Below the pieces are notes generated by a model, which was not told where the DNA came from, did not search any database, and saw only the letters and a program-made list of their open reading frames with translations. A DNA stretch of 64,000 nucleotides. Origin: a virus. Taxonomy: Duplodnaviria; Caudoviricetes. Below are positions 1,630 through 64,000 of this stretch, piece by piece. The position numbers and the translations under genes are program-made. Positions within the stretch are counted from its first letter, which is position 1. Each line of letters starts with the position of its first letter. The DNA lies in the IMG/VR virus record IMGVR_UViG_3300025011_000016; one strand, written 5' to 3'.

Positions 1630-4600
1630 TTGGTTAATAAGAAATTTAAACTATCTATAAATGAGCAACCAAAAAAAATTGCCATCAAATTTGACATTTC
1701 GATTTTGAATTCTATGATCGGGTTTTTATTTAAACAATCAGTGCAAATTAATAGGAAAGCTCTTAATAATATGAAAAAATTATTTGATATTATTGATACA
1801 ACGATATATGAAGGTAATGATAAACTTGAAGCACGACTTAATTTTATAAAAACAGCTTTGGACGCTCGCATAACTAAACAATTCGAAAATGAAAGTATGA
1901 TTATAAATTTCTGTCGCGGTGATACTTATAATAAAGATACTGAAGAAATTATATCAGCAATCGGGGCCTATCGCAGAATAAACTACGAGGAGATAAAATT
2001 TATAAACAAAGCAATCCAAGATAGATTGAAATACTCTTATCTATTAGATATTAAAGATAGAATGTATAATGTTGTAGAGAAAATAGATTCTGGGGATTTT
2101 GAAAGCTTTCAGGATGTTAATGATGAATTAGTTGGACTATGTTCTCACCTATTGAATAAAACCAGAAAAACAAGTGTTCTTGATGATGTGACAACTTTTA
2201 GTTTAGATTCAGAATCATTTGAAACATCGATTACAGATATAGTCAATGCTCTCAGAGATCCATCAAAAAAATATAGGTGGCATTGTAGAGTAATTTACAA
2301 TGATAAACTTCTTTAATTGCGGGAAATCTCTTAGAGCTTCTTAATTGAAGATTGAGTAATCTGCATCCAATATTGTTAATACAACAATAAGGTTCAACGA
2401 CTAGAGTGTAAACTCGTAGATATATGAAATATATCGAAATGGGAAGCATCCTTGATGAAAAAGGTTGATGATATAGTCTTGTATCTTAATGTAAATTAAG
2501 GAAGTTCATAAGAGAACTGTATAGGAGTACATACCTATATGAAAAAACGCACGTATTTTGAAAACAGGCTTGAAAATGCTGAACCAGATACTGGCCCCTG
2601 GCTTTATATCTAAACGATTGTATATGTTTTTAGGCTTACCAGCTTATAAATAAGGTTGGCTCATTGGTAACAATGTGATATAAACTTCTTTAATTGCGGG
2701 GAACTTCTCATAGCTTTATACTAATAAAGATTGGACAATCCGCATCCAATATTCTTATAATAAGAATAAGGTTCAACGACTAGAGTGTAAACTCGTAGAT
2801 ATCGATAATATTGAAATGGGAAGCTCTCTTATTATATAAGAGATGAAGAGATAGTCTGGTATCCTATATTAATATAGGGAAGTTCATTTGAGAACTGTAT
2901 AGATTAATTATCTATATGAACATATCGGGTTTTAAATCAGGTATATTATTGAAAACTGCTAGAGATATAAAAAAGTATAATAAAGGAATTAAACCTAAAA
3001 AAGCAGGTAAAAAACCATGTGTATTATTACTAACACTTGAAAACTCAATTAGTGAATCCGTAGAGAGATTATTTAACATGGTTAGTACTTCTGAGGATAT
3101 TAGGAATTTTACTCCTAAGCAAGTTATTAAGAAATTAAAAGAAGATGGTGAATTAGTATTAACTGATGATGACGATATTGATATTATTATTAAATATTAT
3201 CCAAATAGAAGTATTGATACCTCTGATATATATACTATAGTTGAAGAATTAGCTGATGATGACAAAGAGGTAATAGCTTTAATTTTAGACTATATTAAAA
3301 GAATACGACCTGCTGAAAAAGCTAGTGACGAAAAAGAAGAATTAAAGAATATTACCAATGAATTGAAGAATCTAGCTACAGAATTAGATATACCAGTTAT
3401 TTCAGCCCATCAATATAGGGTGGCTTTATAGAGTGATTTATAAAGAGAACTTTTTTAATTGCAGGAAACTCCTTAGGACTTTATATAATAAAGATTGGAC
3501 AATCTGCATCCAATATTGTTAATACGACAATAAGGTTCAACGACTAGAGTGTGAACTCGTAGATATATAAGTTAATGATATATCGAAATTGAAAGCATCT
3601 AATAAGATGGTGATATAGTCTTGTATCCTATAGAAATATAGGGAAGTTCTTAAGAACTGCATTATATTACGAATAATGTGAAAATCGCAAATGAATAGAG
3701 CTGGAGCAAGTTCAGTTGATGCCGCATTACAAGCTAATAAAGAAGACTTGGCTAAATTTGTAGGTAGAGCCAATGTTGGAAGTGCCTATATTTCATGGGC
3801 CGCATGATGGTAATGTCATGTTGATACTTTTTTAATTGCAGGAAACTCCTTAGGACTTTATATAATAAAGATTGGACAATCTGCATCCAAGATTCTTACA
3901 TAAGAATAAGGTTCAACGACTAGAGTGTGAACTCGTAGATACTTTATGTATCGAAATGGAAAGCAACCTAATTTATAGGTTGAAGAGATAGTCTGGAATC
4001 CTAATGAGAATTAGGGATGTTTGAATAGAACTGGATTATATTACAAGTAATCTGAACATTACGGGGAAGTTTGTATAGAAGCTTCAACATACAGTAATGT
4101 ATGTTTTAAATTTTCTTTAATTGTCGGGGATCTCCTTATAGCTTAAACTACTTTCAATATAGTAATAATGTTTAAGATTGGACAATCCGCATCCAAGTCT
4201 CCCAAAAGAGAAAGGTTCAACGACTAGAGTGTAAACTCGTAGATACATTACGTATCGAAATAAGAAACCCCTTTATATAAAAAATATAGAGGGTGAAGAT
4301 ATAGTCTTGTATCCTAATTAATAATAGGGAAGTTCATAAGAGAACTGTATAAGTTTATGACTTATATGAAAATAACGACTTGAAAACTCAGATTGGGTAT
4401 GTATCATAAACGTCGAGCGTAAGAAAGGAACCGATCAATATTACTTAACCTTTAAAAGAGTTAAGATTCGTTATAGAGATCCAAATGATTTAGGTTATTT
4501 CAATCATCCATTTGATATTCAAAATAGAATGAAGCTTATTGACGACATATATTTAGAAAAATCATTATCTGAAGAAAGTCTAATGAGTGATTTTGAAGGT

Positions 4601-4717
4601 ATTGACGAGAATGTAAATAAAAAAGGTAAACGTAATGCTGTTGAAAGAGACGTTATTGATGATGATGATAAAAATGATTTATTTGACTTCACTAGAGCTA
4701 TTAATAAAACTGCATAA
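1630..4717 (+). CDS. dnaB: DnaB-like replicative helicase, 6 exons / 5 group I introns (~552 aa spliced)
   Basis: Exons 1630-2263, 2550-2644, 2928-3410, 3688-3787, 4064-4070 and 4378-4717 join in frame (1659 nt). Splicing restores RDPS|RILKTG, Walker A GLPA|GFKS, ILDY, SAH|QMNR and GSA|WE|VLENSD. Confidence 0.9.
2264..2549 (+). ncRNA. Group I intron dnaB-I1 (ORF-less)
   Basis: P1 CCAT/GTGG with U-G pair. Core AATTGCGGGAAA, AATCTGCATCC, GTTCAACGACTA, GATATAGTC. Ends in G. Confidence 0.88.
2645..2927 (+). ncRNA. Group I intron dnaB-I2 (in Walker A)
   Basis: P1 CCAGCT/GGTTGG, full core motifs, terminal G before GGT TTT AAA TCA. Confidence 0.9.
3411..3687 (+). ncRNA. Group I intron dnaB-I3
   Basis: Core motifs present and bulged P1. 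Removal gives SAH|QMNR. Confidence 0.88.
3788..4063 (+). ncRNA. Group I intron dnaB-I4
   Basis: P1 GCCT/GGGC and core motifs. Followed by a 7-nt exon. Confidence 0.85.
4071..4377 (+). ncRNA. Group I intron dnaB-I5
   Basis: P1 GAAGT/GCTTC and core motifs. Frame is restored into the 4529..4717 ORF. Confidence 0.85.
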
Positions 4718-7351: not shown

Positions 7352-7449
7352 GTCGTATTTGACGCATTATACGACATAAAAACGTATATTTAAATAATAT
7401 AATTAGAGATTTAAAATCTCTAATTATATTATTTTTTTTCAAAATTATA

Positions 7450-7896: not shown

Positions 7897-7908
7897 TTAT
7901 AATATTAA

Positions 7909-8499: not shown

Positions 8500-8584
8500 A
8501 AATTCACCTCATTTGTATCTTATATTAATATAATGTAGTTTAAAATAAAAAAATAAGTGATTGCTCACTTATTTCTTAAATGAA

Positions 8585-9460: not shown

Positions 9461-9498
9461 TTCTCTTTAACCTCTTTCTCTCTTTTAATTTATATGTT

Positions 9499-9792: not shown

Positions 9793-12615
9793 ATGAAAAT
9801 TGTACCTAATAAACAACAAAAGAAAGCTGTTATTGAATCAGTGAAATGGTTAAAGAGTGGTTATAAACAAGTCTTTGAAATATCAGGTCCTCCAGGATCA
9901 GGTAAAACCTTTATAGTTTATTTAATACGAAAGGCAATGAAGCTAAATCCCTTGGATGTTCTATTTATGGCATATGTAGGAAAAGCTACAATGGCTTTGA
10001 CATTACAAGGTAATAATGCAAAGACAATGCATAGTTCTATTTATGATAGGGTTGATTTACCTAAGATGGATGAGAATGGTAAGTTTATTTTAAAAAATGG
10101 TAGAATACTTACAACTCCTGGTTTTGTTAAGAAAAAATCTTTACCTGATAATATAAAACTTATAGTGGTGGACGAAGGTTCTATGATTAATGAAAAATAC
10201 GCTTTAGATATTTTAAGCTTCAAGTTACCAGTTTTAGTGCTCGGGGACTTAAATCAGCTTTTTCCTATCTTTGGGAAACCTTATTTCTTAAGACAACCTG
10301 ATATTATATTAACAGAAATTATGAGACAGGCTAAAGATGATCCTATTATTCATTTAAGTCAAAAGGCAATTAATGGTGAAATTATTGAGATAGGAAAATA
10401 TGGTGATAGATGTTTTGTTATTAATAAAGAAGATATCACAGACAATATGCTTACAAAAACAGATATCGTTATTTGTGGTAAAAATAAGACACGGGATCAT
10501 ATAAATAAATATGTTAGAGAAGAAATATATAAAATAGACAAGCCTTATCCAGTAAAAGGTGAGAAATTAATATGTAGACAAAATAATTGGGATATGTCTG
10601 TCGATGAAGGTAAAATATTCTTAGTTAATGGTCTTGTAGGTTACGTTGAAGAAACACATTTAGACACTTATAATAAAAGATCTTTATGTATTGATTTTAG
10701 GCCTGAGTTTTTAAAAGAAACTTGTTTTGAAAGAGTAGCAATTGATTCTTTTATGAGTCACGTTGCATAGTAATATGCAATTGCAACTACTTTAATTGCG
10801 GGAAACTCCTTAGAACTTTATCTACTAATGTAACATGATAAAGATTGGACAATCTGCAGCCAATGATCTATTCATAATAGATTTAGGTCCAACGACTAGA
10901 ATGGGAAAGTTCGTAGGGCTCAAGTGAGTGGGTGAGACTCCCTTAAATCGAAATGGGTGGCCCCATTATAATAATTAGTATAATGGGTGAAGATATAGTC
11001 TGTGCTTTAAGGAAACTTAGAGAATAACTAACCGTAAGTCTTAATAACTATTCTGTATATAATTATATTATACAGTTAACAAATAATATAAGAACGGGGG
11101 TGATATAAAATGATTAAGACTTTTAAAACAAGAATACGACCGAATAAAGAACAAGAGGTATATTTAAATAAGTGCTTTGGGTATAGAAGGTTTATATATA
11201 ATAATGCGTTAGAATACTTTAATACTCTTTTAAAATATAATAATAATGTTATTGATAAGGATTTAAAGAAGTTCTTTGATAAATTTGATTATATTACTCA
11301 TATATATTCTAAGAAAGAAAAGGGACCGGGATTTGAATGGACTAAAGAATATAATAAGTCCATAAAGAATGAAGTGGCTAGTGATGTTAACTTAGCTGTT
11401 AATAGATTTTTTAAAGATATTAAAAATAAGAAGCGTTGTAAACTGCATTTTAAAAGAAAGGTTCATGGAAATGGATCGTTTAGAATATATAGTAAGCATA
11501 AAACTAATGTTATGATTCTTGATATGAAATTATTCTCTTTTATTATTAATAGAGAATTTGGTCATATGTCATTAAAAACATATGAGGACATAAGTTTCTT
11601 ATATCATCATGATATAAAAACAATGACTATTAGTATGAAGAATTTTAAATATTATGTCTCATTTACTTATGAAATAGATGTTCCAAAGCATAAGCATGAG
11701 AAAGATACCATAGGTATAGATTTAGGGATACATAATCCGGTAGTTTGTTTTGATGGAAAAGATATCATAAATCCTAAATTTCCGAAAGGAATTATTAAGA
11801 AACTAGAGAAGAGAGCCGATAAATTTTCAACGATAGTTTCTAAGAAGAAATATGATAAATGTAATCCATCAAAGAACTATATAAAAGCGAGAACCAAGCT
11901 TAATTATATTCATGGTAAGATAGTGAATATTAGAATGGATTATATTCAGAAGGTTTCAACCTTCTTAACTAAGACTTATAGAAATATCGTAGTTGATGAA
12001 TTTAGTTTTAAAGAATTACTAACAGAGTCTGATGGTATTAAACGTATTAATAGAGGTATACATAGAGTAGGTGCCTTTACGTTTATGCAAGTGTTAAAAT
12101 ATAAATGTCACTTTTACGGCAGTGAATATATTTTAGCCGAACCTAATAGTACCATTACATGCTCTGAATGTAATCATAAACTTAAAACTAAGTTGAAGTT
12201 ATCCCAAAGAGTCTTTAATTGTCCTGATTGTGGATATATAGATGATAGGGATAATAATGCGGCTATTAATATTTATAAGTCATATAAGAATCTTTATTAA
12301 CTAACGTAAATAGAGATTTCGCCGTTGGTCGGACGGTTTAAAGAACCTTGACGGTTAAGTTATTGTGGTATCTAACGAATACTACTAACACGACAGTATA
12401 AGCATTTATTTACACCATATGAACAGAGAGATAATAAACGTAGCTATTATAATAAATTTGAATTTGCCAACGCAATAAGCGTTCATTTATCACAAGGATC
12501 ACAATATAATACAGTTTTAATATATAATGAAAGAATGGGAGATAAAGAGTATTATAAGAAATGGTTATATACAGCAATATCGAGAGCGGTATCCGGATTA
12601 GTATTGGCCGTTTAA
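9793..12615 (+). CDS. RecD/Dda-like SF1 helicase, 2 exons (~390 aa spliced)
   Basis: Exon 1 9793-10746 has GPPGSGKT and VDEGSM. Exon 2 12397-12615 has SVHLSQGSQY and LYTAISRA. Junction reads VAID|YKHLF. Confidence 0.88.
10747..12396 (+). mobile_element. IStron-like element 1: group I intron + tnpB + omegaRNA-like right end
   Basis: Inserted after TTGAT. P1 TGAT/GTCA, ribozyme core 10790-11000, tnpB downstream of the S element, conserved right end ...CTAACACGACAG. Confidence 0.88.
11110..12300 (+). CDS. tnpB: TnpB (IS200/IS605-family RNA-guided nuclease)
   Basis: N-terminal KTRIRP..EQ..L..CFG..RFIYN, RuvC-I GIDLG, zinc finger CSEC..CPDC, RuvC-III DRDNNAAINI. Confidence 0.92.
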   Translation: MIKTFKTRIRPNKEQEVYLNKCFGYRRFIYNNALEYFNTLLKYNNNVIDKDLKKFFDKFDYITHIYSKKEKGPGFEWTKEYNKSIKNEVASDVNLAVNRFFKDIKNKKRCKLHFKRKVHGNGSFRIYSKHKTNVMILDMKLFSFIINREFGHMSLKTYEDISFLYHHDIKTMTISMKNFKYYVSFTYEIDVPKHKHEKDTIGIDLGIHNPVVCFDGKDIINPKFPKGIIKKLEKRADKFSTIVSKKKYDKCNPSKNYIKARTKLNYIHGKIVNIRMDYIQKVSTFLTKTYRNIVVDEFSFKELLTESDGIKRINRGIHRVGAFTFMQVLKYKCHFYGSEYILAEPNSTITCSECNHKLKTKLKLSQRVFNCPDCGYIDDRDNNAAINIYKSYKNLY

Positions 12616-12646
12616 TACATAATATTATTTGAAAGGAGTTAGTATA

Positions 12647-13898: not shown

Positions 13899-16800
13899 AT
13901 GGCTAAATTTACAGATGATCAAATAGAACACATAGAAAGTGACATAGAGAAGATTCAGACTAAGCCTAAATATAATTGGGCTATTATATAGTGATATATA
14001 ATATAAACTTTTTTAATTGACGGAAACTTCCTTAGAGTCTAAACTACTAAATTGATATTTTAGTATATTGATGGCTGAGTGTAATTAACTCAGGTATAGT
14101 AATAATGTTTAGGATTGGATAATCCGCATCCAAGTCTCTTATAATAAGAGAAAGGTTCAACGACTAAATGTAGAGCTCAAGTGAGTGGGTGGAAATCCCT
14201 TAAATCGAAATGGAAAGCATCTTTAATAAAAGATGATGATATAGTCTTATATCCTAATGAAAATTAGGGAAGTTCATAATAGAACTGCACAGCTCAGCAA
14301 ACTGTGTGAAATAATGAATATGTACGTCAGCTATTTAGCACACCTAGGCGCATTACATTTATCTAAAGAGGTAATAAATAATTCTATAGATGAATGTATT
14401 AATCAAAATTCACCAGCTAACGAAATTAATATATATTTAGATGAAGGTGAGAATACTTTACTAGTTGCTGATAATGGTAGAGGAATAGCTTTCGATAAAA
14501 TGGAAATTGTGTGCACTAAATTACAAGCAGGTAGTAAGTTTACCAGAGAGGGTAGTGGTGGAGCTTCTGCTGGAGAAAACGGGTGTGGCATTACGGCCGT
14601 GAATTCGCTGTCGGAACACTTTGAGATAATCTCAACTCGTTATGGTGAAAGGGCTATAATTGAATTTGAATCTGGTAAGTTGGTCAGGTCACCAGTAATT
14701 AAAAAAATCGGTGATAAAACTAAACACGGTACTACAGTAAAATTTAAACCCAATCCATTTTACATGGGTGACGATTGTGATATCCCAACAGATTTATTGA
14801 TTGAATGGATTGAAAAAATAGTTTATTTAATGCCATCAAATATAGAAATATCACTAAGTGTCTCCAGAAAAGGTAAAGAATCTGCAATAAATAAAAAGTA
14901 TCGTAATAAAAATGGTTTAAAGGACTATATTTTGAAATTGTGTAAAAAGCCTATTTTAGATCCAATTCATTTTATGAAATCTTTAAAAATTAAAGAATTT
15001 GATAAAGGTAGAGAGATCGAAAGATTCATTGGATTAGAAACAGCTTTTACTTACAATTCAAATAGTATGGAACCTATTATTGAATCATTTTGTAATTTTG
15101 TGGTCACTGTTGAAGGGGGTATTCACAACGATGCTGTTAAACAAGGTGTTGTCCAATTCTTAGTTAGGAAAACTAAGGAGGGTTTATCTGATAAAGAATC
15201 GAAAAATATTGATATACTACCTATAGACGCTACTCAAGGATTAGTGTTGACATTATACTTAAGTACCGATATGAATATGATGTTTGCATCACAAACGAAA
15301 GAAAAACTTTCTAATAATGCTTTCTTCAAACCACTCAGAAACATGACATTTAATTCATTGGATGAATACTTTAAAAAAGAAGTTAATGATTTAAAGAAGA
15401 TAACAAGTTTTATTAAGACTAATGCTAAAGCAAGAATTGAATCAAACAAAGCTAGAAATGCTGTTATTAAAGGTGAAACTACTTCATTCGAAGAACACAA
15501 AATGAAGAATTTCTCTCCTGCAAATAATTTAGGGAATGATTACAGAGAGTTATTTGTTATAGAAGGTAAATTAGATTGCCTTATTTTCTTTAATTGACGG
15601 GAAACTCCTTAGAACTTCTTAATTGAAGATTGGACAATCCGCAGCCAAGTCTCTTTATATAAGAGAAAGGTTCAACGACTAGAGTATGTAAGCTCGTAGG
15701 TTTATTTATAATCCGAAATGGGAAAACAATAGATTTATTCTATTGAAGAGATAGTCTAATATCCTAATTAACATTAGGGAAGTTCATAAGAGAACTGTAT
15801 AGAGTTATAATCTATATGAATGATTGGATTCAGCAAAGGGTAGTGCAAGGTTAGGTAGGGATACGGATACTCAGGCATTATTTGCAATGCGAGGAGTTCC
15901 ACTTAATAGTTTTAATCTAAAGTTAGATAAAGTTTTATTGAATGATGAATTTAGGGATTTAACTAAAGTATTAAAATGTAATATCGGTGAACGATTTGAT
16001 ATTACAAAACTAAATTATAAAAAAATAATCATACTTACGGATGCGGATTAATTCATAGTCCCATTATGTAGTGATATATAATGTAAACTTCTTTAATTGA
16101 CGGGAAACTCCTTAGAACTTCTTAATTGAAGATTGGACAATCCGCAGCCAAGTCTCTTTATATAAGAGAAAGGTCCAACGACTAATAGTAGGGCTCAAGT
16201 GAGTGGGGTAATAACACCCTTTAAATCGAAAATAGAGGCATCTTTTATAAGATGATGATATAGTCTACACTTTATTGAAAGATAAAGAAAGATAGCATCT
16301 TTACATTATCTAACGAATAATGTTAATATGAATGGATTGATGGTTTGAGAATAGCCTCACTAATTTGTGTATTCTTCTTATGTCATATGCCAGAGATAAT
16401 TAAGCAAGGATATTTATATAAATCAGTATCACCACTATATTTATTAAATGATACTAAGGGTCATTTTATTATTGATAAAAAAGAGTATGTATCAGTTTTT
16501 GAAAAAGCTGTTAGAAATAACATTAAAGTTATTGATCCAGAAACTAATATTGTTTATACTAATAATGAGATGAAAGAGTTACTATTAAAGAATAGGGGAT
16601 ATTTAGAGGAGTTATACCGAGTTAGTAATCATTTTGCAGTTAATCCTTTTATCATTGAATACATCACCATATATGGGGATCAATCAAATTTCATAAATAA
16701 AATGAAAAAGAAATTCCCTGAGTTAACACTTGATGAAGAAAATGTTTTATCTGGTATATATGAAGGAAAATATCAGATTATTATATTGGATAAAATATTC

Positions 16801-17191: not shown

Positions 17192-17887
17192 GTGAAATTC
17201 AACCCAACTATTCATTTAAAAGGAGTGTTTGTTATTATTAATGATTTAACTGGTAGGGAATTTGGTAGGTGGAAAGTTATTAAAATAACTGATGAGAGAA
17301 CTAAAGATGGTAATGTTAAATGGTTATGTGAATGTAGTTGTGAGAAGCGCACAACAAAAACTGTCAGTGGATCAAATTTAGTAAAAGGAGTTTCAACAAA
17401 CTGTGGATGTGTTCGTACAGAAAAAGTGAAAAAGCGGGCAAAACATGGTCTGTGGAACACTAGAATTTATAAAACATGGCATAGTATGAATAGAAGGTGT
17501 TCAAATCCTAAAGATTCGAATTATGTGAATTATGGAGGTCGTGGAATTACAGTATGTGAAGAATGGAAAGAAGTCATACCTTTTTATAATTGGGCTATAA
17601 ATAATGGTTATTCCAAAAAATTAACTATTGATAGAATAGATAACGATAAAGGATATTATCCTGAAAATTGCCGTTGGGTGAGTATGTATGTTCAAAGTAG
17701 GAATAAACGGAGTAATAATTTTATCACCTTTGAAGGTAAAAGTAAAATTATTACTGATTGGGCAAAATATACTGGATATGATATAACTACTATTAGACAT
17801 AGGATAAATAATAATTTACCTATTGAGGAAATATTAGCACGTAAACCGAATAGATATTTTATTGATATAAATATATTGAGTAAATGA
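17192..17887 (+). CDS. Free-standing HNH-type endonuclease
   Basis: WLCECSC..CGC, YGGRGITVCEEW and TIDRIDNDKGYYPENCRW. The true start may be slightly downstream. Confidence 0.8.
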   Translation: MKFNPTIHLKGVFVIINDLTGREFGRWKVIKITDERTKDGNVKWLCECSCEKRTTKTVSGSNLVKGVSTNCGCVRTEKVKKRAKHGLWNTRIYKTWHSMNRRCSNPKDSNYVNYGGRGITVCEEWKEVIPFYNWAINNGYSKKLTIDRIDNDKGYYPENCRWVSMYVQSRNKRSNNFITFEGKSKIITDWAKYTGYDITTIRHRINNNLPIEEILARKPNRYFIDINILSK

Positions 17888-42100: not shown

Positions 42101-42952
42101 TTAAAATAACAAATATCAGAATGGATTATATCCAGAAGGTATCTACATTTTTAGCTAAAACTTATAAAAACGTTATAGTTGATGAATTTAGTTTTAAGGA
42201 TGTATTAACAGAGTCTGATGGTATTGAGCGTATAAATAGAGGTATACACAGAGTTGGTGCCTTTACATTTACCACAGTGTTAAAATATAAATGCCACTTT
42301 TATGGTAGTGAATATATTTTAGCATTACCTAACAGTACGAACACATGCTCTGTTTGTAATCATAAAGTTAAAACTAAAATGAAGTTATCTCAAAGAGTCT
42401 TTAATTGCCCACAATGTGGACATATAGATGATAGAGATAACAATGCGGCTATTAATATCTATAATACATTTAAACGATCTTTATTAACTAACGTAAATAA
42501 AGATTTCGCCGTTGGTCGGACGGTTCAAAGAACCTAAACGGTTAAGTTATTATGGTATCTAACGAATACCATTAACACGACAGTTATGCCTAAAGAATAA
42601 GATGGGAGGGCTGTTATTAATCCGTGGGATTAAAGAAATAACAGCCGTTAAAATTATTGAGGGCATAAAGTCGAATAAAAAACTTATTGATTTATTACGA
42701 TCCGAGATTAATTTAAGGAGGGATGTAAGACGATATACAATTAAAGTATGTTTTACTAAAGTTAGAGATAAAGATTTTGAGAAATTTCTTGAAAGTAAGA
42801 ATGTATTGGTTCTTGAAAAATATAATAAGGAGGTTGATGTGTTAATCATACCTTATAAAGATATTGATTCAGTCAAAGTTACTACTGCGAAGAAAGATGG
42901 TAAGGATATCGTAACCATCGATGAAGCTTATAAGATGTTTGGTTATAAGTAG
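39187..42952 (+). CDS. ligA: NAD-dependent DNA ligase, 2 exons (~698 aa)
   Basis: Exon 1 39187-40914 has PKWDG, DGVV, AYKF and a C4 zinc finger. Exon 2 42584-42952 has HhH and BRCT-like tail. Junction LID|LCLK is in frame. Confidence 0.9.
40915..42583 (+). mobile_element. IStron-like element 3: group I intron + tnpB
   Basis: Inserted after TAGAT. P1 AGAT/GTCT, core motifs and right end ...TTAACACGACAG. Confidence 0.88.
41296..42537 (+). CDS. tnpB: TnpB, close paralog of 11110..12300
   Basis: Same motifs (GIDLG, CSVC..CPQC, DRDNNAAINI). TTG start after AAGGAGG. The ORF reads into the right-end RNA. Confidence 0.92.
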   Translation: MIKTFKTRIRPTKEQEVYLNKCFGYRRFIYNNALEYFNTILEFNGNNLDKTLKKFFNKFDYITNIYSKKEKEPELEWTREYNKNIKDQVSSDFNIAVNRFFNDIKNKKRCKLHFKRKIHGNGSFRIYNKNKGNVKILDKNIFSFIINREYGHMSLKTYEDISFLYHHDIKTMSIRMKNFKYYVSFTYELDIPKHDHEKDIIGIDLGIHNPVVCFDGKDVIAPKFPKGIIKRLEKKVDKFSTIVSKKKYDKRNPSKNYIKARTKLNDIYIKITNIRMDYIQKVSTFLAKTYKNVIVDEFSFKDVLTESDGIERINRGIHRVGAFTFTTVLKYKCHFYGSEYILALPNSTNTCSVCNHKVKTKMKLSQRVFNCPQCGHIDDRDNNAAINIYNTFKRSLLTNVNKDFAVGRTVQRT

Positions 42953-43525: not shown

Positions 43526-46500
43526 TTGAAGGACTTCATAAAGGATTATAACAACACCAATGAAGAAAATATCAATTTTGATCTAATGACACGATCACAT
43601 GATGCTGATTTAACAGAGTATGTTGTTAATACCTGTAAATCATTAGAAGTTCTTAAATATATTAAATTCATTGGTTATGAATATATAACTGATGAAACGA
43701 AAATAGATATTAATTACTATATGAGTACGAGGAAGAAAAGTAAGAAGAAAAATGAAACAAAGTATATGTACCTGCAAGATAGTCGATATGGTGAAATGCA
43801 TTTAAAGTTTCATTTAAAATGTAAAGATCGATCATTAACTTTTATCAAGAAGATATTATTACCAGTGGCTGATGATAATGATTATTATTTAGTTAAAGGT
43901 AAAAGACATTCATTATTATATCAACTAGTTGATAGTTCAACTTATACAACTAGACAGAATTTAACATTAAAATCATTAAGACCTATTACGATGAAACGAA
44001 CTGAAAGAATATATTCAGATACAGATGGTACTAAACATTCAGCTCCTTCATATGCAATTTATATCTTCAAGAAAGAAGTAGATATATTATTATTCTATTT
44101 TGCAAAGATAGGTGTGTCAAGAACTTTAGAATATTTTTCAGTAAATCATATAATGAAGTTTAAATCAGAAATTGAAGATACTATCAATAATATATATTTC
44201 TCAATTAATAGTAAATTACATGTAGAGATCAATAGACATTTCTTTGATAAATATCCATATGTTAAGAGTATAGTATTTATGATATTGAATATTTGCACTA
44301 ATAGATTAACTGTTGAAGATCTAGAAAATAAATCTTTCTGGATTGAAAAGATAGGCTCTATGAATGCGACTAATGCATATAACTATCTAGAAAAAGGTAC
44401 TAATACTTTAGTATTCTTTGATAGGTTATTAGATGAAACAACTAAGAATATTTTAAAAATTCATGATGAGAATAATAAAAATATATACTCTGTAATTCGT
44501 TGGATTAAATTATAGTCCCATTATAGAGTGATCTATATTGAAAACTTCTTTAATTGTCGGGAAACTCCTTAGTGCTTTATAAAGATAAAGATTGGACAAT
44601 CCGCAGCCAAGATTCTTATAATAGGAATAAGGTTCAACGACTAATTTAGAGCTCAAGTGAGTGAGTTTAATATAACTCTTAAATCGAAATAAGAAGCATC
44701 TTATATAAGATGATGATATAGTCTGTGCTTTATTGAAAGATAAAGAAAGATAACATCTTTACATTATCTAACGAATAATGTTAACACTCAGGTTTCAAAA
44801 CTTTAATGAATTACGTAAGAAAGATAATCTTGATCTTGCCAATAAACGTTTACGATGTAATGAACTCATCGCATCATTATTAACTAAAGCTTTTAGTACT
44901 AGAGTTGATAGAATTATTGGTTTTGGTAATAAAGTTACGTTAGATAACATTAAGGAAATATTCAAATTTCCAGGTGATGTAATAATGCAGCAATTGCATA
45001 AGTCAGGATTATTTAGATATGATATTTTATTGTCCATTATAGTAGTGATATTATAATGAATTTTCTTTAATTGGCGGGGACATTCTTAGGGCTTAAACTA
45101 CTAAAATATATCAGTGATGATATACTAACTAAGAGTAACTAACTTAGTATGAGTAATAATGTTTAAGATTGGACAATCCGCAGCTAAGCATCTTTATATA
45201 AACCCCCATAATTATTAATACGTTATACAATATAAAGGAGAGGTGTGACTGTAATGAAAGGACGATTGGGTGAAAATAAATGTCCCTCTTGTTACGAATA
45301 ATTATTCAATTAATTCTGAGGGATTTATTAGGAATGATAAATTCAATAGAATTTTGACCCGATGGAAAAATAATAGAGGTTATGAAGCTGTGCAATTATC
45401 ATGTATTGATGGTATAACAAGAAGTTTTACAATTCATAGATTGATGGCTCATCATTTTATACCAGGGTTCGACATTTCAGATAGATCCATTGTTGTTCAT
45501 CATAAGGACAGTGTAAATAAAACTAACTCATTAGATCTTCTAACCGTTTGTACTCAAAAAGAAAATATTAAGTATTCTATCGAAGAAGGTAATAAACCAA
45601 ATGGTGAAAAACATCCGATGGGTAAATTTCCAGATGAGCTGGCTAATAAAATAGTTGCCTTATTACAAAAAGAAAAAAGTACCGATGAAATATTTAATAT
45701 ATTAGATTTAGAAGTTAAGAAGAATATGCGTATATTTATAAATGATCTTAGAGCTAAACGAACCCGATTGTATTTAACTGAAGGTTTGGATTTAAAGAAG
45801 CATGTGCAGGAAAAACATGATATAAACTTGGTGAAGAGGGTGATTCGTTATATGAAGATAGGTATGACGGTAGATAATATAATCAATATGATTGGAAAAG
45901 GAAATGCTGGTAGGCATGAAAGGGAGAGATACTCCTCGTTAATACAAAGGATACATGACGGGAAAGCGTGGGGAAGATTATATAAAGATGATAGTTCAAC
46001 GACTAATGATGACTACATGGTTATTAAAATTAAAATGTAGTTATAGATTTACAAGCTAATGGTAAATCGAAATGGGGAACACCTCATATTAAGTTGATAT
46101 GAGATGAAGATATAGTCTGGTATCCTAATATTAAATTAGGGAAGTTCATAAGAGAACTGGGTTTCGTTGCGGAAAACCTGAACCTGGGGATAAAATTAAC
46201 GATCTCGACTTCTTTAGTAAGTTCAAATATACCCTAAATTTTGGGGCGTTATAGAGTGATCTATATAGATAAAATTCTTTAATTGTCGGGGAACTCCTTA
46301 GAACTTCTTAATTGAAGATTGGACAATCCGCAGCCAAGATTGTTGATAAACAATAAGGTTCAACGACTAGAGTATAACTCGTAGATATATAAGTTAATGA
46401 TATATCGAAATAAGTTTAATCTTCTTATAGAAGATTGTGATATAGTCTTGTATCCTATATAACATTAGGGAAGTTCATTTGAGAACTGTATAGAGTTACG

Positions 46501-47746
46501 ATCTATATGAAAGTATACGTAAAGGACCAAATTCCTTGGGTTTTAATAAATAGGCCCATGATCTTTTAATTGCGGGAAACTCCTTAGTACTTCTATATGA
46601 AGATTGGACAATCCGCAGCCAAAATTGTTGATAAACAATAAGGTTCAACGACTAGAGTATAACTCGTAGATATATAAGTTAATGATATATCGAAATATAG
46701 AACTATCGAAAGATAAAGAGATAGTCTGGTATCCTAATTAACATTAGGGAAGTTCACAGGAGAACTGCATTATTTTACGAATAATGTGAACTCATCGAAT
46801 AAAAATGATAATAATATCTCAGTTAAATATCGCGGCATACACCCGAGTTATCTGGCCCGCGTAGATATTAACGTTTGCGGTGAACGTAGAAATATAATTG
46901 CCGCCTTTTCTTTAATTGACGGGAACTCCCTTATAGCTTAAACTACTAATAGTAACAAGTTTAAGATTGGACAATCCGCAGCCAAGATTGTTATAAAACA
47001 ATAAGGTTCAACGACTAGAGTGATAACTCGTAGATTCGAAAGAATTGAAATGGGAAAACGATAGAGTTATTCTATTGAAGATATAGTCTAATATCCTAAT
47101 ATAAGTTAGGGAAGTTCATAAGAGAACTGCATAGATTGATAAACTGTGTGAATAAATGAATTCAGACCCTAGAAATAAATTTGGGGCAATATCGAGTGAT
47201 CGTTATTGTTAAACTACCTTGACTGCGGGAAACTTCTTAGAGCTTTAAATTGATAAAGATTGAACAATCCGCACCCGATATTCTATATAATAGAATAAAG
47301 TTCAACGACTAGAGCATATTTGCTCGTAGATATAAAGTTATATCGAAATTAGTAGAATCTCTTAGGAGATTATGAGATAGTCTGGTATCCTATATAACTA
47401 TAGGGAAGTTCATAAGAGAACTGTACTATTTAACGAATAGTATGAACACACGGGAACTAGTGGTATTATAACACCATTCTGTAAAACTAGTGGATTATTC
47501 TTCGATGGTGCATTTGAACCAGAAAGTTTTAAATATGATTTTGATAAGGAGATAACTGACTTTAGAAAATCAACTAGTAATAACATAATTGTTGATACTC
47601 ACTATGATAATATATCTGAGTATTTTGAAGGTAGAGAACGATTTAAAGAAATGAATAGTCGAATCAAAATATCAGAGATTGAACGAACTGATAATAGTAA
47701 GTATTATATTAAAATTAAGCTTGCTAGTAATACTGATGATATATAA
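43526..47746 (+). CDS. RNA polymerase beta-subunit N-terminal half (probably non-virion RNAP), 7 exons / 6 introns (~556 aa)
   Basis: Exons 43526-44505, 44792-45023, 46189-46235, 46520-46541, 46798-46881, 47159-47170 and 47453-47746 (1671 nt). Restores KFKYT|LKGPNSLG|NKN..RGIHPSYLARVDINVCG|NSDP|GTSG, matching the RpoB fork-loop region. Confidence 0.85.
44506..44791 (+). ncRNA. Group I intron betaN-I1
   Basis: P1 GGAT/GTCC and core motifs. Confidence 0.87.
45024..46188 (+). mobile_element. Group I intron betaN-I2 with HNH ORF
   Basis: P1 GAT/GTC. Q precedes the ORF, R lies inside the ORF 3' end, and S is at 46107. Confidence 0.85.
45270..46040 (+). CDS. Intron-encoded HNH homing endonuclease
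   Basis: IHRLMAHHF..VHHKDSVNKTN..TQKEN. GTG start. Confidence 0.8.
   Translation: MKINVPLVTNNYSINSEGFIRNDKFNRILTRWKNNRGYEAVQLSCIDGITRSFTIHRLMAHHFIPGFDISDRSIVVHHKDSVNKTNSLDLLTVCTQKENIKYSIEEGNKPNGEKHPMGKFPDELANKIVALLQKEKSTDEIFNILDLEVKKNMRIFINDLRAKRTRLYLTEGLDLKKHVQEKHDINLVKRVIRYMKIGMTVDNIINMIGKGNAGRHERERYSSLIQRIHDGKAWGRLYKDDSSTTNDDYMVIKIKM
46236..46519 (+). ncRNA. Group I intron betaN-I3
   Basis: P1 CCCT/GGGG and core motifs. Confidence 0.87.
46542..46797 (+). ncRNA. Group I intron betaN-I4
   Basis: P1 TGGGT/GCCCA and core motifs. Confidence 0.87.
46882..47158 (+). ncRNA. Group I intron betaN-I5
   Basis: P1 GCGGT/GCCGC and core motifs. Confidence 0.87.
47171..47452 (+). ncRNA. Group I intron betaN-I6
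   Basis: P1 CCCT/GGGG and slightly divergent core (GACTGCGGGAAA, AATCCGCACC). Confidence 0.85.
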
Positions 47747-56989: not shown

Positions 56990-59900
56990 ATGGATTTCAT
57001 GAAAGGTATTAATAAAGAGAATGTCATGTTAATTAATATAATATATCATAATAAGAGAAAAGAGAATAATTATAATGATTACTTAGATATTATCACTAAA
57101 GATTTAACCACAGGTGAAAAAATACTTACAACTATCGAGAATCCTGAAATGGATATATATTTTACAAAAGAGGAGCATAGAAATTATGACTATAATAAGA
57201 ACTTTATGGAAATTGATAAGACTGATAGACATAGATTTAAATATAAAGATCTAACTAGATCCATAGCTAAAATGGCTGGGCCTAGTTATGAGAACTTCAT
57301 TAAACAATCTATAGAAACACAAAATTATGCTAGAATAAATAATATCCATAAATATAAATATGTATTTGGATCTGATGTTGATATTGAAAATTGGTATAGA
57401 ATTCAATGGTTATTAAATTATGATAATAATAAACCTAAATCCGTAACTAAGCTATTTCTCGACATAGAAGTCGACGGTCGGGATGTACCTGGATTCCCCA
57501 GAGATGGTGAAGTGCCAATTAATGCTGTAACGATAGTAGATGAATTTAGTAATCAATCATTTACATTCTTATTGGATAATCCATTAAACCCTCAAATAGA
57601 AGATTTTAAAAATGATGTGGAATCTTTTGTTGAAGAACTACATAATGATTTTGATGAATCATATGGGGAATTAAAATATAACTTATTTATTTATGATGAT
57701 GAAGTTCAAATGTTAATAGATGTATTTAAATTGATTAACACTCTGAACCGAGATTTCCTATTAGTGTGGAATATGAGTAAAATGATGCTCCTTATAAAGG
57801 CGACTTTATAAGAAAATTTCTTTAACTGCTGGAAACTCCTTAGAGCCTTTATTATCAGAGTATAATAATATAAAGGATTGGGCAATCAGCAATCAAGTTC
57901 AATAACAAACTAAGTTTTATTACATTTATTAGAGGAGGGTAAAACATGTATATAGTAATACGCAAAGATAAAGAAGTATTTAAATTATCAACTTATCCTG
58001 GGATTAAAAAAGATATGTATTCTATTAGTAACTACGGGTCTATACGTAATAATGTGACAAACGAGATATTTTTTCCAACATCGAGAAACTCAGCAGGTTA
58101 TGTACACACTTCTTTATGTACAGAATCATTTAAAGTTTACACTAGTGTTTTGGTATCACGTTTAGTTGCTTGGGAATTTTGTGATGGTTATGATAAGGAA
58201 CTAAATAGGGTGGAAGTCAATCATAAAGATATCAACAGGGCTAATAATTATTATGAGAATTTAGAATGGGTGACTCGGGGAGAAAATACTAAATTTGCCT
58301 ACGTGCATGGCAATCGTAAGGTGATAGTGCCAGATTCTAGGGGACCAAGAGCAAAGATACGCGGATCATTAAATCCCAAGAATGTTTTCAGTGAAGAGTT
58401 TGTACATGAACTCTGTCAGTTATTCACGGACGGTAAGAGCACTAAAGAGATATTAAAAATATTCAATACGAGTAAAAAATTAAATACACAACTCTATTCA
58501 TTACTCATGACTTTGAAACATAGAAAAGGATGGGGACATATTACGGAAAAATATGTATATTGATATTTGTTATTGAAAAGATTCAACGACTAGAGTGAGA
58601 ACTCGTAGACCCTTTTCATGGGGTGGACATAATAAGTCCTTCGCGAAATGGGAAACATCTCCGATGTGGAGATGAAGATATAGTCTGATATCTTAGGGAA
58701 ATCCTAAGGAAGTTCATAAGAGAACTGCGTAGTATAAAAAACTATGTGAACTGTTTGTTCGATGTGCCGTACATGATCGCACGTATGTTAGAATTAGGAA
58801 TGAATCCTGTTGAAGTGATGTGTCATAAAGATTTTAAAATACAAGAAGCTTTTTTCAAAAAAGATCTTCGAAATTTTATGATAGCTAATAAAGGAGATTA
58901 TTTTAAGATATCATCTTATACTGTATATTTAGACCAAATGATAGTATATGCCAGTTTAAGAAAAGGAGGTAGTCAGTTACGATCAAATGCTCTTAGCTAC
59001 ATTGCTCAAGTTGAAATTGGTGATGAAAAATTAGACTATTCTGAAGATGCTAATATCAAAACTTTACCATATGTTAATTACAAGAAATTCGTTAAATACA
59101 ATATCAAAGACGTTTTACTACAACTTGGAATTGAGAGAAAAACTCATGATATTGATAATGTTTATTTAAGATCGTATACAAATGTAACAGCTTATTCAAA
59201 AGTATTTAGACAAACGGTATTTTATAGTGCCGGTGATTCTTTAATTGACGGGAAACTCCTTATAGCTTCTTAATGAAGATTGGACAATCCGCAGCCAAGA
59301 TTCTTATAATAAGAATAAGGTTCAACGACTAGAGTATAACTCGTAGGTTTAATAACTGAAATGGGAAACCGATAGAATTTATTCTATTGAAGATATAGTC
59401 TATTATCCTAAAGTAATTTAGGGAAGTTCATAAGAGAACTACATTATCTTACAAATAATGTGAATTATAGGTTCTTAAAAAACAGAGCATTTTTAGAGTT
59501 TTATAAACAAGGTTTGATTATTGGTAATAATACCAATATTGATTATGGATTACCTCCTCAGATAGCTAAAGAAAAAGATGAGGATGATGAGAAATTTGCA
59601 GGTGCATTAGTTGGTGATCCTGAATTGAATAGTAAGACTGGTATAATGATGTTAGGAACTCCAAGTAAATACATCTATGATAACGTTGTAGATATGGATA
59701 GCTTTGTCCCATTATGTAGTAATATGTAATGAAAACTTCTTTAATTGACGGGGAACTCCTTAGAACTTCTTAATCGAAGATTGGACAATCCGCAGCCAAG
59801 ATTCTTATTATATAGAATAAGGCTCAACGACTATCCCATTGGTATTGAAATATACAACAGGAGTAGGGCTCAAATGAGTGGGTGAAATTCCCTTAAATCG

Positions 59901-60600
59901 AAATAAGAAGCATCTTATATAAGATGATGATATAGTCTGAACTCATATGAGAATATGAGAGAGTTTACTTTATATTATCTAATAAATAATATTAACAAAT
60001 TGATGGGTAAATATTGCTCATATAAAACTTCTTTAATTGACGGGAAACTCCTTAGAACTTCTTAACTGAAGATTGGACAATCCGCAGCCAAGATTCTTAC
60101 ATAAGAATAAGGTTCAACGACTAGAGTGTGACTCGTAGATATAAAGTTATATCGAAATGAAAAGCTCTCTTAATAAGAGATGAAGATATAGTCTAATATC
60201 CTATATAATTATAGGGAAGTTCATAAGAGAACTGTATAGAGTTACGATCTATATGAATACCATGGCGTTTTATCCTAATATGATTATGGCTTTTAATATA
60301 TCACCAAATTGTATAATCGGTAAATTACTCTTAGACACAACCATAGAAGACCTATATAATATCAAAGATATTGAAGCCGATATATATGATTGTGGGCGAG
60401 ACTTCGTAGATAACATGTTAATTAACAATCCTGGTAACATGGGCAGTAAATGGTTTAATCTTCCGAAAATAGAAGAACTTAATGAGTTAATACGAGAGAA
60501 GTTCTTAATGAATAAGAAGACTAAACTAATTATACCTGACTCATATAAAGATAAGTTATTTATTGAGAATCTAGTAATAAATATTAAAGGAGTGAAATGA
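56990..60600 (+). CDS. Family-B DNA polymerase, exonuclease + motif A part of a split enzyme; 5 exons / 4 introns (~606 aa)
   Basis: Exons 56990-57778, 58758-59218, 59471-59699, 60003-60008 and 60265-60600. ExoI FLDIE, ExoII WNMS|FD, ExoIII YNIKD and motif A VVDMD|MG|AFYP. Confidence 0.88.
57779..58757 (+). mobile_element. Group I intron pol-I1 with HNH ORF
   Basis: P1 GAGT/GCTC. Divergent core (AACTGCTGGAAA, AATCAGCAA), R GATTCAACGACTA and S AAGATATAGTC. Confidence 0.87.
57946..58563 (+). CDS. Intron-encoded NUMOD4/HNH homing endonuclease
   Basis: SRLVAWEF..NHKDINRANNYYENLEW. Paralog of 25080. Confidence 0.85.
   Translation: MYIVIRKDKEVFKLSTYPGIKKDMYSISNYGSIRNNVTNEIFFPTSRNSAGYVHTSLCTESFKVYTSVLVSRLVAWEFCDGYDKELNRVEVNHKDINRANNYYENLEWVTRGENTKFAYVHGNRKVIVPDSRGPRAKIRGSLNPKNVFSEEFVHELCQLFTDGKSTKEILKIFNTSKKLNTQLYSLLMTLKHRKGWGHITEKYVY
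59219..59470 (+). ncRNA. Group I intron pol-I2
   Basis: P1 CGGT/GCCG and core motifs. Confidence 0.87.
59700..60002 (+). ncRNA. Group I intron pol-I3
   Basis: P1 GGAT/GTCC and core motifs. Ends AAATTG. Confidence 0.85.
60009..60264 (+). ncRNA. Group I intron pol-I4
   Basis: P1 TGGGT/GCTCA and core motifs. Confidence 0.85.
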
Positions 60601-63166: not shown

Positions 63167-64000
63167 AAAATAATATATAGCCGATGATAAACTTCTTTAA
63201 TTGACGGGAATATCCTCAGAGCTTTAAACTACTAAACTAGTATAGTGATATGCTAAGTGGCTAGGAGTAATTAACCTAGGTATAGTAATAATGTTTAAGA
63301 TTGGATAATCCGCAACCAAGATTCTAATGTTATTAAATATTATTTCTTATATTCATCATAACAGAGCTATAAATATAATTATATGAAAGGATTGTGAGTA
63401 ATGCGAAATATAGTTGAAATATTTAAACCGATTTATATTTATGGTGAACGCACTAATTATTTAGTTAGTGATTGGGGGACTGTAATGAATGGGACTACCA
63501 AGAAGGAGTTAAAACAACGTCTTAATGCTGATAACTATTATGAAGTTACATTATGGGTAAATAATAAAGCCGTTAATCGAAGGATACATAGATTGGTGGC
63601 CGAAACCTTTCTTGAGAATCCAAATAATTATCCTGTAGTAAATCATAAAAAAGGTGGATTAACAGAGGATGGGCAATGGAATAATTGTGTTTTAAACTTA
63701 GAACATACAACTATTTCATATAATACAAAACATGCATATGATACGGGTTTAAAGAACCCTTTAGTTGGAGAGGAATGTGGGTTTAATATATATCCGGAAC
63801 CATTAATAGATAAAATTATCAATAAACTATTAATGGCTATACCACCGGACATTATAGCCGATGAACTTGGGGTAAAAGTATCATTAGTTACAAGTGTGCG
63901 TGATGGATATTCATGGAAACATAAAATTAAAGGTCTTGTTTTTCCTAAACCTGCTTTTGCCCACACTAATGAATATACATATGAATTAAAATTTAAAATT
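63167..64000 (+). mobile_element. Group I intron (3' end outside window) with HNH ORF
   Basis: P1 TCGGT/GCCGA, AATTGACGGGAA and AATCCGCAACC, followed by an ORF. Confidence 0.82.
63401..64000 (+). CDS. Intron-encoded NUMOD4/HNH endonuclease, 3'-truncated by window
   Basis: Read manually: MRNIVEIFKP..IHRLVAETFLENPNNYPVVNHKKG..NNCVLNLE. Open to the end of the window. Confidence 0.8.
   Translation, partial: MRNIVEIFKPIYIYGERTNYLVSDWGTVMNGTTKKELKQRLNADNYYEVTLWVNNKAVNRRIHRLVAETFLENPNNYPVVNHKKGGLTEDGQWNNCVLNLEHTTISYNTKHAYDTGLKNPLVGEECGFNIYPEPLIDKIINKLLMAIPPDIIADELGVKVSLVTSVRDGYSWKHKIKGLVFPKPAFAHTNEYTYELKFKI

Follow-up and report, generated by a model that had tools for sequence, protein, structure and literature searches.

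The window analysed here, the whole stretch of 64,000 nt from IMG/VR virus record IMGVR_UViG_3300025011_000016 (Duplodnaviria; Caudoviricetes), contains 29 group I introns, all on the plus strand and spread over nine essential genes, where they interrupt eight coding regions and one 5′ untranslated region (5′UTR). We consider it probable that one family of small group I introns multiplied within this phage lineage, mostly by ectopic insertion of resident copies. Summed up, the introns cover 14,189 nt, which corresponds to 22 % of the window and a density of 0.45 introns per kb. The window derives from a jumbo phage from Rifle groundwater with a genome of ~248 kb (ENA ERZ28564140 scaffold_24, 248,478 bp) that is distantly AR9/PBS1-like and has split RNA polymerase (RNAP) beta genes; among the INPHARED phages we obtained only distant matches of 60–80 % identity to AR9-like phages and to HNH genes. 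About one third of the 248 kb was read, namely the window, ~10 kb upstream of it and a distant piece of 9 kb. As the upstream part holds no further intron and the distant piece holds two, the genome carries at least 31.

Searching the window with the Rfam model RF00028 returned 22 matches above the gathering score of 50 bits (56.6–95.4 bits) and one at 43.1 bits, all on the plus strand. The P7 3′-strand motif GA[GT]ATAGTCT occurs 28 times in the window, and a 29th intron, I29, starts at 63167 and extends past the window end. A family profile hidden Markov model (HMM) built from the 22 small copies detects all 29 introns, again on the plus strand only, with the introns containing open reading frames (ORFs) appearing as split half-matches; six of the latter were detected only in this way and not by RF00028. 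Family HMM scores are strong for 27 of the 29 introns, the exceptions being the divergent I14 and I25, of which only the 3′ half was matched. The number of introns proposed in an earlier note on this sequence is thereby borne out. Its distribution over dnaB (5), a helicase gene (1), gyrB (3), the small RNAP-beta gene (2), beta-C (6), the ligase gene (1), beta-N (6), the DNA polymerase gene (4) and a ‘portal’ gene (1) proved exact as well, while two of its labels need amendment, since one of the small-beta introns lies in the 5′UTR and the ‘portal’ is only a virion structural protein according to PHROGs. The 22 ORF-less introns, given there as 250–360 nt long, measure 252–357 nt; the other seven contain tnpB (I06 and I18), a tnpB remnant (I10) or HNH-type ORFs (I11, I20, I25 and I29).

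Splice sites were assigned from the U.G pair in P1, the terminal G and the continuity of the reading frame across conserved motifs. The 5′ exon ends in T at all 29 introns, and a terminal G closes all 28 complete ones. In 26 of the 29, a script recovered a P1 pairing of 4–6 bp between the intron's own 5′ exon end and its internal guide, the splice site being marked by a U.G pair. P1 was assigned by eye in I11 and I15, where a different helix came out of the script, and in I14 it is not clear; to this extent the exon-matched internal guide sequence previously ascribed to each intron is confirmed. Removal of the introns turns all nine genes into open reading frames. Once spliced, DnaB, the helicase, GyrB, small beta, beta-C, the ligase, beta-N and the polymerase each align with one uninterrupted ORF of a related phage, G001, that is free of introns, at 59–74 % identity; across intron-free orthologues the alignments are single high-scoring segment pairs of 57–74 % identity, and at none of 27 junctions is there an unaligned residue within 6 amino acids (aa). 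In a consensus fold derived from 22 copies of this phage and its relatives, 33 of 52 base pairs show compensatory changes, because of which the fold appears to be under selection. We hence treat the introns as real, with splicing predicted from sequence. As to their subgroup, the alignments display two short hairpins between the P7 5′ strand and the P3 3′ strand, where subgroup IA2 has its extra helices P7.1 and P7.2, for which they are candidates; IStron ribozymes and over half of the viral group I introns belong to IA2 (PMC4227781, PMC11835236). An assembly artefact was rejected as an explanation, as independent assemblies are 100 % identical over I01–I08 and the spliced genes are colinear with those of relatives. 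Contigs from other assemblies of this phage (L074, L075 and L079) end inside introns I01 and I08 (window 2415 and 15758); the intron family fragments metagenome assemblies.

The relatives found in IMG/VR have GyrA proteins 56–69 % identical to that of the window. The genome of G001 is complete, measures 218 kb and has terminal repeats. Per whole genome, RF00028 matches number 0 in G001, 8 in G002, 16 in G003 and 5 in G004. In the presence/absence comparison that had been suggested as a check, G001 is without any intron, and the gyrB and helicase genes are uninterrupted in all 11 relatives. Same-site counterparts exist in relatives for I03, I04, I11, I12 and I14; a beta-C intron of G003 is positioned 9 nt from the I12 site, structural-gene introns of G002 and G003 lie 26 nt from the I29 site, and relatives also have introns at sites that are empty in the window. 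The gyrA gene of G004 (L057 11288-11438), for example, holds a family intron and that of the window none, and in G003 (L064 4002-4706) two tandem introns 26 nt apart interrupt a RecA/KaiC-like ATPase gene whose window homologue (30840-32111) is intron-free.

Core identity among the window introns averages 71 % and ranges from 54 % to 91 % (227 columns, P1 and P2 excluded), with the maximum reached by I12 and I23. The earlier note had emphasised near-identical shared blocks. Its three quoted blocks do recur, with 12, 14 and 9 exact occurrences and 22, 18 and 17 when up to 2 mismatches are allowed, and the 24-nt block is found 24 times with up to 3 mismatches and never in shuffled sequence; the rest of the introns is not near-identical. 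This block was rejected as a marker of recent copying, since it occurs exactly in 46 unrelated viral contigs of IMG/VR and represents a general core of the intron type.

Closer insight into the origin of the copies comes from a maximum-likelihood tree of 68 cores over the same 227 columns. The pattern that according to the note would speak against proliferation, with introns closest to same-site introns of other phages and not to each other, did not emerge: 26 of 28 introns have their closest core match inside the window. Window-only clades comprise I12 with I23 (bootstrap 100), the P2-lacking I08, I12, I23 and I26 (99), I13, I21, I22 and I24 (93), and the IStron copies described below (98). 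I14 alone pairs with its same-site orthologue, that of G003 (bootstrap 100). A constraint that makes sisters of the four other same-site pairs lowers the log-likelihood by 160 and is rejected (approximately unbiased (AU) test, p 7e-5), and same-site pairs share only 66–78 % core identity. Taken together, these data favour gain within the lineage from resident copies. The within-genome proliferation that had been postulated is therefore supported by window-only clades, the AU test and empty sites in relatives, with the restriction that some introns appear to be old or shared, as I14 is orthologous at its site and the sites of I03, I04, I11 and I12 are occupied in relatives too. Gene conversion may have contributed, and so may exchange with close relatives outside the sample.

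A second line of evidence is provided by the insertion sites. Across 28 sites, information is limited to positions −4 to −1, with G or C at −4 and −3 and T at −1, and no conserved sequence was found downstream, a profile that fits guide pairing and not a long homing-endonuclease site. A long common homing site was searched for around the insertion sites and rejected, as nothing beyond 4 nt is shared overall or within clades. The final exon trinucleotides are GAT (8), GGT (8), CCT (7), CAT (2), AGT (2), GCT (1) and TGT (1). In 16 of 28 introns the last three exon bases are the same as those of the nearest core relative (permutation p 5e-5), and the core phylogeny, from which P1 and P2 were excluded, correlates with the 3-mer and the 4-mer of the target (p 5e-5 to 2e-4 by permutation). 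The five introns without P2 follow GGT, I13, I21 and I24 follow CCCT, and I01 and I03 follow CCAT. I12 and I23, which follow different exons, have guides that are distinct at the exon-matching positions. Such a link between clade and target is expected if insertion, or later survival, depends on pairing with the parent's guide.

Four copies, I06, I10, I18 and one outside the window, are IStrons. I06 and I18 combine a 5′ ribozyme and a tnpB gene with three Pfam domains in one element, and a 3′ splice site placed after tnpB makes the helicase and ligase reading frames continuous again. The encoded protein matches solved ISDra2 TnpB structures (E 5e-26), with the RuvC acidic residues and the zinc-finger cysteines present. 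A third tnpB copy is located in the same genome outside the window; ~1 kb upstream of this IStron we observed a family intron with a NUMOD4 ORF (L080 1978-2853). The three tnpB genes are 83–85 % identical, and their dN/dS of 0.19–0.20 and dS of 0.41–0.50 mark them as old paralogues kept by selection. I10 retains eight tnpB codons and a complete IStron 3′ end. The targets of the four copies are TTGAT, AGGAT, TAGAT and ATGAT (xxGAT), and all four end in an identical 11 nt, ..GACAG. Their last 106 nt are 91–97 % identical, the tnpB-deleted I10 included, compared to 79–90 % in the ribozyme parts, which would be expected if this segment were the guide-RNA scaffold plus the transposon right end. For TnpA, there is neither room nor an ORF between ribozyme and tnpB in the IStrons, nor any remnant of ORF A.

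Beyond four near-identical clusters, the nearest match to this TnpB among 5.8 billion proteins has 34 % identity, and INPHARED homologues reach ~30 %. Neither an exact 21-nt piece of the IStron 3′ end nor back-translated TnpB peptides gave a match in 185,579 bacterial and archaeal genomes, which therefore offer no clue to the host. A strain from another Rifle sample (L083, ENA ERZ909591) is 96.3 % identical over window 8785-12402. Its helicase IStron occupies the site found here, but the TnpB encoded there reaches no more than 88 % identity. Group A IStrons are known to insert after TTGAT-like pentamers (TTGAT, ATTAT, TTTAT), end in TCAG and often lack ORF A, and IStrons have been described from Clostridia, Bacillus, Fusobacteria and C. 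botulinum phages (PMC4227781). Published work has shown that an RNA derived from the 3′ end of the IStron directs its TnpB to cleave the empty site (bioRxiv 10.1101/2023.11.20.567912).

Based on these observations we propose that most copies would have arisen by ectopic insertion of residents into new sites after this lineage diverged from the relatives sampled here, be it within the present genome or in a pool of close relatives recombining with it. A new copy would land, or survive, only where the last 3–5 exon bases pair with the parent's internal guide, and this need for pairing would be the reason why sister introns share target tetranucleotides. How the copies move may differ between at least three kinds of mobility module. 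In the four IStron copies, an IS200/IS605-type tnpB and a conserved 3′ RNA segment would occupy a peripheral helix close to the 3′ end, and their xxGAT targets and invariant ends are as one would expect for transposase-cut termini. By analogy with characterised IStrons, co-infecting relatives that lack the intron should have their allele (GAT motif plus 3′ exon) cut by TnpB with its guide RNA, which would drive homing. Mobilisation by a transposase is well supported only for these GAT-type copies. In the second module, the presence of HNH-type endonuclease ORFs in four copies suggests classical homing. The third comprises the other 21 ORF-less copies, which have no mobility gene and may have inserted by reverse splicing, by IS200/IS605-like single-strand transposition in trans, or by break repair followed by selection for splicing.

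Several points weigh against this reading. Neither TnpA (Y1 or serine) nor a reverse transcriptase was detected among 50 window ORFs searched with Pfam, which cover all but a few of those above 100 aa. Four relatives yielded neither TnpA nor reverse transcriptase, and TnpB, too, was missing from the two of them with 8 and 16 family introns. No known machinery explains the spread of the ORF-less copies. As relatives with 8–16 introns do without TnpA, TnpB and reverse transcriptase, the IStron machinery cannot be the general driver. The earlier note proposed to look for such machinery elsewhere in the genome and did not mention the two tnpB genes of the window, which reside within I06 and I18. 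Furthermore, the paralogues have diverged, by the core identities and tnpB dS values given above, to a degree that makes many of the events old. The clustering of introns by genome could partly reflect gene conversion, the tree was built on just 227 columns, and the association of target and phylogeny could result from selection for splicing competence after untargeted insertion.

It is unlikely that the introns instead came in one by one, each to its own site from an intron-containing allele of another phage with the help of homing endonucleases in cis or in trans, and then passed through vertical descent and loss of most endonuclease genes, with no transposition inside the genome. The four introns with HNH-type ORFs and an HNH-like ORF between gyrB and gyrA would suit such serial homing, as would the location of introns in the best-conserved motifs, where homing sites typically lie, the five same-site counterparts and the grouping of I14 with its orthologue. 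However, same-site pairs other than I14 are divergent non-sisters whose monophyly the AU test rejects, most sites are empty in all sampled relatives, the surroundings of the sites share no similarity beyond 4 nt even within clades, and an ectopic event would still be needed to colonise each site first. Improbable, too, is a history in which the introns are old at their sites and frequent gene conversion makes them mimic recent paralogues. Phage recombination is very active, same-site introns resemble other introns of their own genome, and one contig, L078 (ENA ERZ28564294 scaffold_2500), joins the I08 region to the I15 region over a shared 93-nt stretch; with its matches to window 6842-15681 and 36115-37863, it is either an assembly chimera from intron repeats or a real inter-intron recombinant. 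Yet concerted evolution cannot explain why sites lack an intron in every relative, the intron-free G001 included, nor is a link between core clade and target tetranucleotide among its predictions, and the 9–46 % divergence between copies points to weak homogenisation.

Two further explanations concern the way in which ectopic copies reach their sites. All copies might be non-autonomous IStron derivatives moved as single-stranded DNA by a phage or host TnpA of the IS200/IS605 type, with bases of the internal guide serving as the left-end guide. The site profile, with 4–5 nt directly 5′, nothing 3′ and no duplication, resembles that of IS200/IS605 elements, the IStron ribozymes are members of the same family, in group A IStrons the subterminal palindromes at the 5′ end and the P1 domain overlap (PMC4227781), and C. 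difficile has non-autonomous IStrons beside free-standing introns (bioRxiv 10.1101/2023.11.20.567912). We nevertheless give this possibility little credence, as no TnpA was found in the window ORFs scanned or in four relatives with 0–16 family introns, the 3′ tails of ORF-less copies vary in sequence and length (8–13 nt) in contrast to the invariant IStron ends, the subfamily without P2 has no 5′ hairpin, and the targets are diverse (GAT, GGT, CCT, CAT and others). Replication-strand bias was rejected as a test of IS200/IS605 insertion, as it is confounded by gene orientation and by the requirement for insertion in the sense strand. Alternatively, excised intron RNA could re-insert into guide-paired phage transcripts, followed by DNA copying and recombination into the genome. 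For such reverse splicing it speaks that the target determinant is exactly the 4–6 nt paired in P1, that all copies are sense-oriented in transcribed regions, one of them in a 5′UTR, and that sister introns share targets while the I12 and I23 guides differ at exon-matching positions. In essential genes, however, selection likewise keeps introns in sense orientation and compatible in P1, and neither the window ORFs scanned nor the relatives yielded a reverse transcriptase; we rate reverse splicing as rather unlikely. Within the preferred reading of ectopic spread by resident copies, we cautiously put forward as a possibility, doubtful as it is, that ORF-less introns reach new sites by a nucleic-acid-guided step in which the 4–6 nt internal guide chooses the DNA or RNA target, be it as reverse splicing in a DNA phage without a reverse transcriptase of its own or as IS200/IS605-type single-strand transposition in which the ribozyme guide equals the left-end guide. 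If the transposition form were true, a change of the guide would retarget insertion and splicing at once.

The arrangement of the introns is unusually dense. Six intron pairs are separated by exons of 6, 6, 7, 12, 15 and 22 nt, which is unlikely under random placement (p 5e-4). The 6-nt exon ATGGGT of the DNA polymerase gene (60003-60008) constitutes the whole 5′ strand of the next intron's P1. Junctions fall into better-conserved protein stretches, with a mean local identity of 0.78 at 27 junctions compared to 0.66 over all positions (p 3e-4); conserved sites include Walker A of DnaB, KP|NMY, EG|DSA and DAD|IDG of GyrB, RYG|NKG of RNAP beta, and ExoII and motif A of the polymerase. Unlike the other introns, the tnpB IStrons I06 and I18 are found in poorly conserved stretches (local identity 0.42 and 0.50), which fits a different way of site choice. 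The HNH-type ORFs interrupt the P6 region and comprise NUMOD4 and HNH_3 in I11, HNH_3 in I25, NUMOD4 in I29 and PHROGs HNH families in I20. The HNH ORF of I11 is seemingly split into two overlapping frames (25080-25508 and 25489-25698) and may be frameshifted or decaying. A peripheral hairpin, GGGAAGTTCATAAGAGAACTG, is near-invariant, loop included, in all type-A introns (e.g. window 2497-2519) and in the relatives L054 and L063–L071, whose proteins are only 60–70 % identical, a conservation that exceeds the apparent need of a peripheral helix. I10 is situated between the Shine-Dalgarno sequence AGGAGG and the ATG of the small RNAP-beta gene, which are 591 nt apart. The ribosome-binding site of this gene would accordingly be assembled only after I10 splicing, on which translation should depend, and this dependence could couple the two processes as regulation.

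The coordinates of all introns and associated genes are compiled in Table 1. Among the replication and transcription genes of the window there are also a tubulin/FtsZ-family gene (27595-28740) and a ParA/MinD-type ATPase gene (37694-38518), and no tRNA genes were found in the window.

Table 1. Group I introns and associated open reading frames in the 64,000-nt window (a vertical stroke within a motif marks the junction).
Feature	Position	Strand	Evidence
I01, ORF-less, dnaB, after ..TCCAT	2264..2549	+	RF00028 65.6 bits; junction aa 211 gap-free vs G001
I02, ORF-less, dnaB Walker A region (GLPA|GFKSG)	2645..2927	+	RF00028 73 bits
I03, ORF-less, dnaB (SAH|QMNR), same site filled in L054	3411..3687	+	RF00028 69.9 bits
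I04, ORF-less, dnaB, same site filled in G002; followed by 7-nt micro-exon 4064-4070	3788..4063	+	RF00028 89.3 bits
I05, ORF-less, dnaB, 7 nt past I04, site empty in G002	4071..4377	+	RF00028 56.9 bits
I06, IStron, PIF1/RecD-like helicase gene: 5′ ribozyme, tnpB, conserved 3′ end; target TTGAT|, end TAACACGACAG|	10747..12396	+	family HMM 133 bits; site empty in 11/11 relatives
tnpB of I06, 396 aa: HTH_OrfB_IS605, OrfB_IS605, Cas12f1-like TNB	11110..12300	+	Pfam; ISDra2 TnpB structures E 5e-26
I07, ORF-less, gyrB (KP|NMY)	13968..14316	+	RF00028 74.7 bits
I08, ORF-less, without P2, gyrB (IEG|DSA)	15568..15826	+	RF00028 65.5 bits
I09, ORF-less, gyrB Toprim motif (TDAD|IDG), target CGGAT|	16049..16335	+	RF00028 95.4 bits
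Free-standing ORF between gyrB and gyrA	17192..17887	+	blastn: similar to genes annotated as HNH endonuclease in phages of Clostridium and others
I10, tnpB-deleted IStron, 5′UTR of small RNAP-beta gene	23791..24381	+	RF00028 86.3 bits
I11, HNH ORF (25080-25508), small RNAP-beta gene; ORF-less copy at same site in G003	24908..25865	+	split HMM matches; Pfam NUMOD4, HNH_3
I12, ORF-less, without P2, RNAP beta-C (RYG|NKG), same site filled in G004	34701..34965	+	RF00028 56.8 bits
I13, ORF-less, beta-C; followed by 6-nt micro-exon 35329-35334	35055..35328	+	RF00028 76 bits
I14, divergent, older intron, beta-C; same-site orthologues in G003, G004	35335..35652	+	RF00028 56.6 bits; with G003 orthologue, bootstrap 100
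I15, ORF-less, beta-C	36068..36368	+	RF00028 78.7 bits
I16, ORF-less, P5 extension, beta-C; followed by 15-nt exon 36777-36791	36420..36776	+	RF00028 74 bits
I17, ORF-less, beta-C, target GAGAT|	36792..37087	+	RF00028 94.6 bits
I18, IStron, NAD-dependent DNA ligase gene; target TAGAT|, end TAACACGACAG|	40915..42583	+	family HMM 145 bits
tnpB of I18, 413 aa, 83 % identical to I06 copy	41296..42537	+	Pfam; BLASTP; dN/dS 0.19
I19, ORF-less, RNAP beta-N, target TGGAT|, end TAACACTCAG|	44506..44791	+	RF00028 84.8 bits
I20, HNH ORF (45270-46040), beta-N, target AGGAT|	45010..46186	+	split HMM matches; PHROGs HNH endonuclease
I21, ORF-less, beta-N; followed by 22-nt exon 46520-46541	46236..46519	+	RF00028 59.1 bits
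I22, ORF-less, beta-N	46542..46797	+	RF00028 68.7 bits
I23, ORF-less, without P2, beta-N; followed by 12-nt exon 47159-47170	46882..47158	+	RF00028 69.6 bits
I24, ORF-less, beta-N	47171..47452	+	RF00028 43.1 bits, below gathering score; family HMM 201 bits
I25, HNH ORF (57946-58563), family-B DNA polymerase ExoII motif (WNMS|FDVPY)	57779..58757	+	HMM 3′ half; Pfam HNH_3
I26, ORF-less, without P2, DNA polymerase gene	59219..59470	+	RF00028 71.6 bits
I27, ORF-less, past motif-A aspartate of DNA polymerase; followed by 6-nt micro-exon 60003-60008	59700..60002	+	RF00028 85.6 bits
I28, ORF-less, DNA polymerase motif A (D|MG|AFYP)	60009..60264	+	RF00028 69.5 bits
I29, without P2, NUMOD4 endonuclease ORF (from 63401), virion structural gene, extends past window end	63167..64000	+	HMM 5′ half; Pfam NUMOD4

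Classical phage introns with homing endonucleases include those of T4 td, nrdB and sunY, the polymerase introns of the SPO1 family and those of Twort (see the review PMC3984707). The introns described here are of the same common phage type, interrupt conserved motifs of DNA metabolism, carry HNH ORFs in peripheral loops and occur several per gene; in contrast to that handful of site-bound introns, they comprise dozens of paralogous copies, mostly without an ORF. Intron-rich genomes have been described for the Jug phages, with a mean of 18.5 introns per 360–402 kb, and crAss-like phages are also cited as intron-rich (PMC12880540). As in Jug phages, essential genes of a large genome are broken up by numerous small group I introns in company with HNH and other endonuclease genes; unlike them, the present phage has at least 31 introns in 248 kb, 29 of which lie within the 64-kb window, one dominant family, exons of 6–22 nt between tandem introns, and IStrons. 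The Jug-phage paper contains no analysis of intron spread (PMC12880540). In the phage-nucleus jumbo phage PhiPA3, the nuclease gp210 from an RNAP-gene intron serves in competition and can cut the intron-less allele of a co-infecting relative (PMC11620839), to which the proposed role of TnpB is akin; gp210 is an HNH protein, whereas the nuclease in two of the present introns would be the RNA-guided TnpB.

With group A IStrons of the CdISt1 type (PMC4227781, bioRxiv 10.1101/2023.11.20.567912), the four copies share the order of a 5′ ribozyme, tnpB and a conserved 3′ RNA in a peripheral 3′ helix, a TTGAT-like pentamer ending in U as target, the 3′ end ..CAG, and the occurrence of several copies per genome with ORF-deleted variants and no intact TnpA. 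They differ in being located in jumbo-phage genes (helicase, ligase, RNAP 5′UTR) and not in a bacterial chromosome, in their targets TTGAT, ATGAT, TAGAT and AGGAT, in ending in ACAG instead of TCAG, in having no ORF A remnant, and in coexisting with 25 related introns without an IS part. Intron-rich huge phages and IStrons are thus kinds of system already known. New here are the density of introns, the dominance of a single family with phylogenetic and target evidence of ectopic spread, the tandem introns with 6–7-nt exons, and group A-type tnpB IStrons in jumbo-phage genes beside ORF-less and HNH-bearing kin.

Beyond the phage itself, the intron load has practical consequences, as it breaks gene calling, with nine genes appearing as ~35 fragments, and breaks assembly, with contigs that stop or turn chimeric at introns. 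The exons of 6–7 nt between tandem introns test the minimal exon context for group I introns. TnpB in self-splicing introns of replication genes could act as a programmable weapon of homing and competition between co-infecting phages. By what route group I introns that lack a homing endonuclease arrive at new sites has long been asked; reverse splicing is, to our knowledge, the usual answer, but the natural evidence for it is thin. With about 29 related copies, relatives with 0–16, clear parent–daughter pairs, short guide-paired targets and a transposon-bearing subfamily, this question becomes testable in one system. If the guided insertion step outlined above were to hold, the phage would represent a natural record of dozens of ectopic group I insertions, with the IStrons as autonomous or ancestral members of the family.

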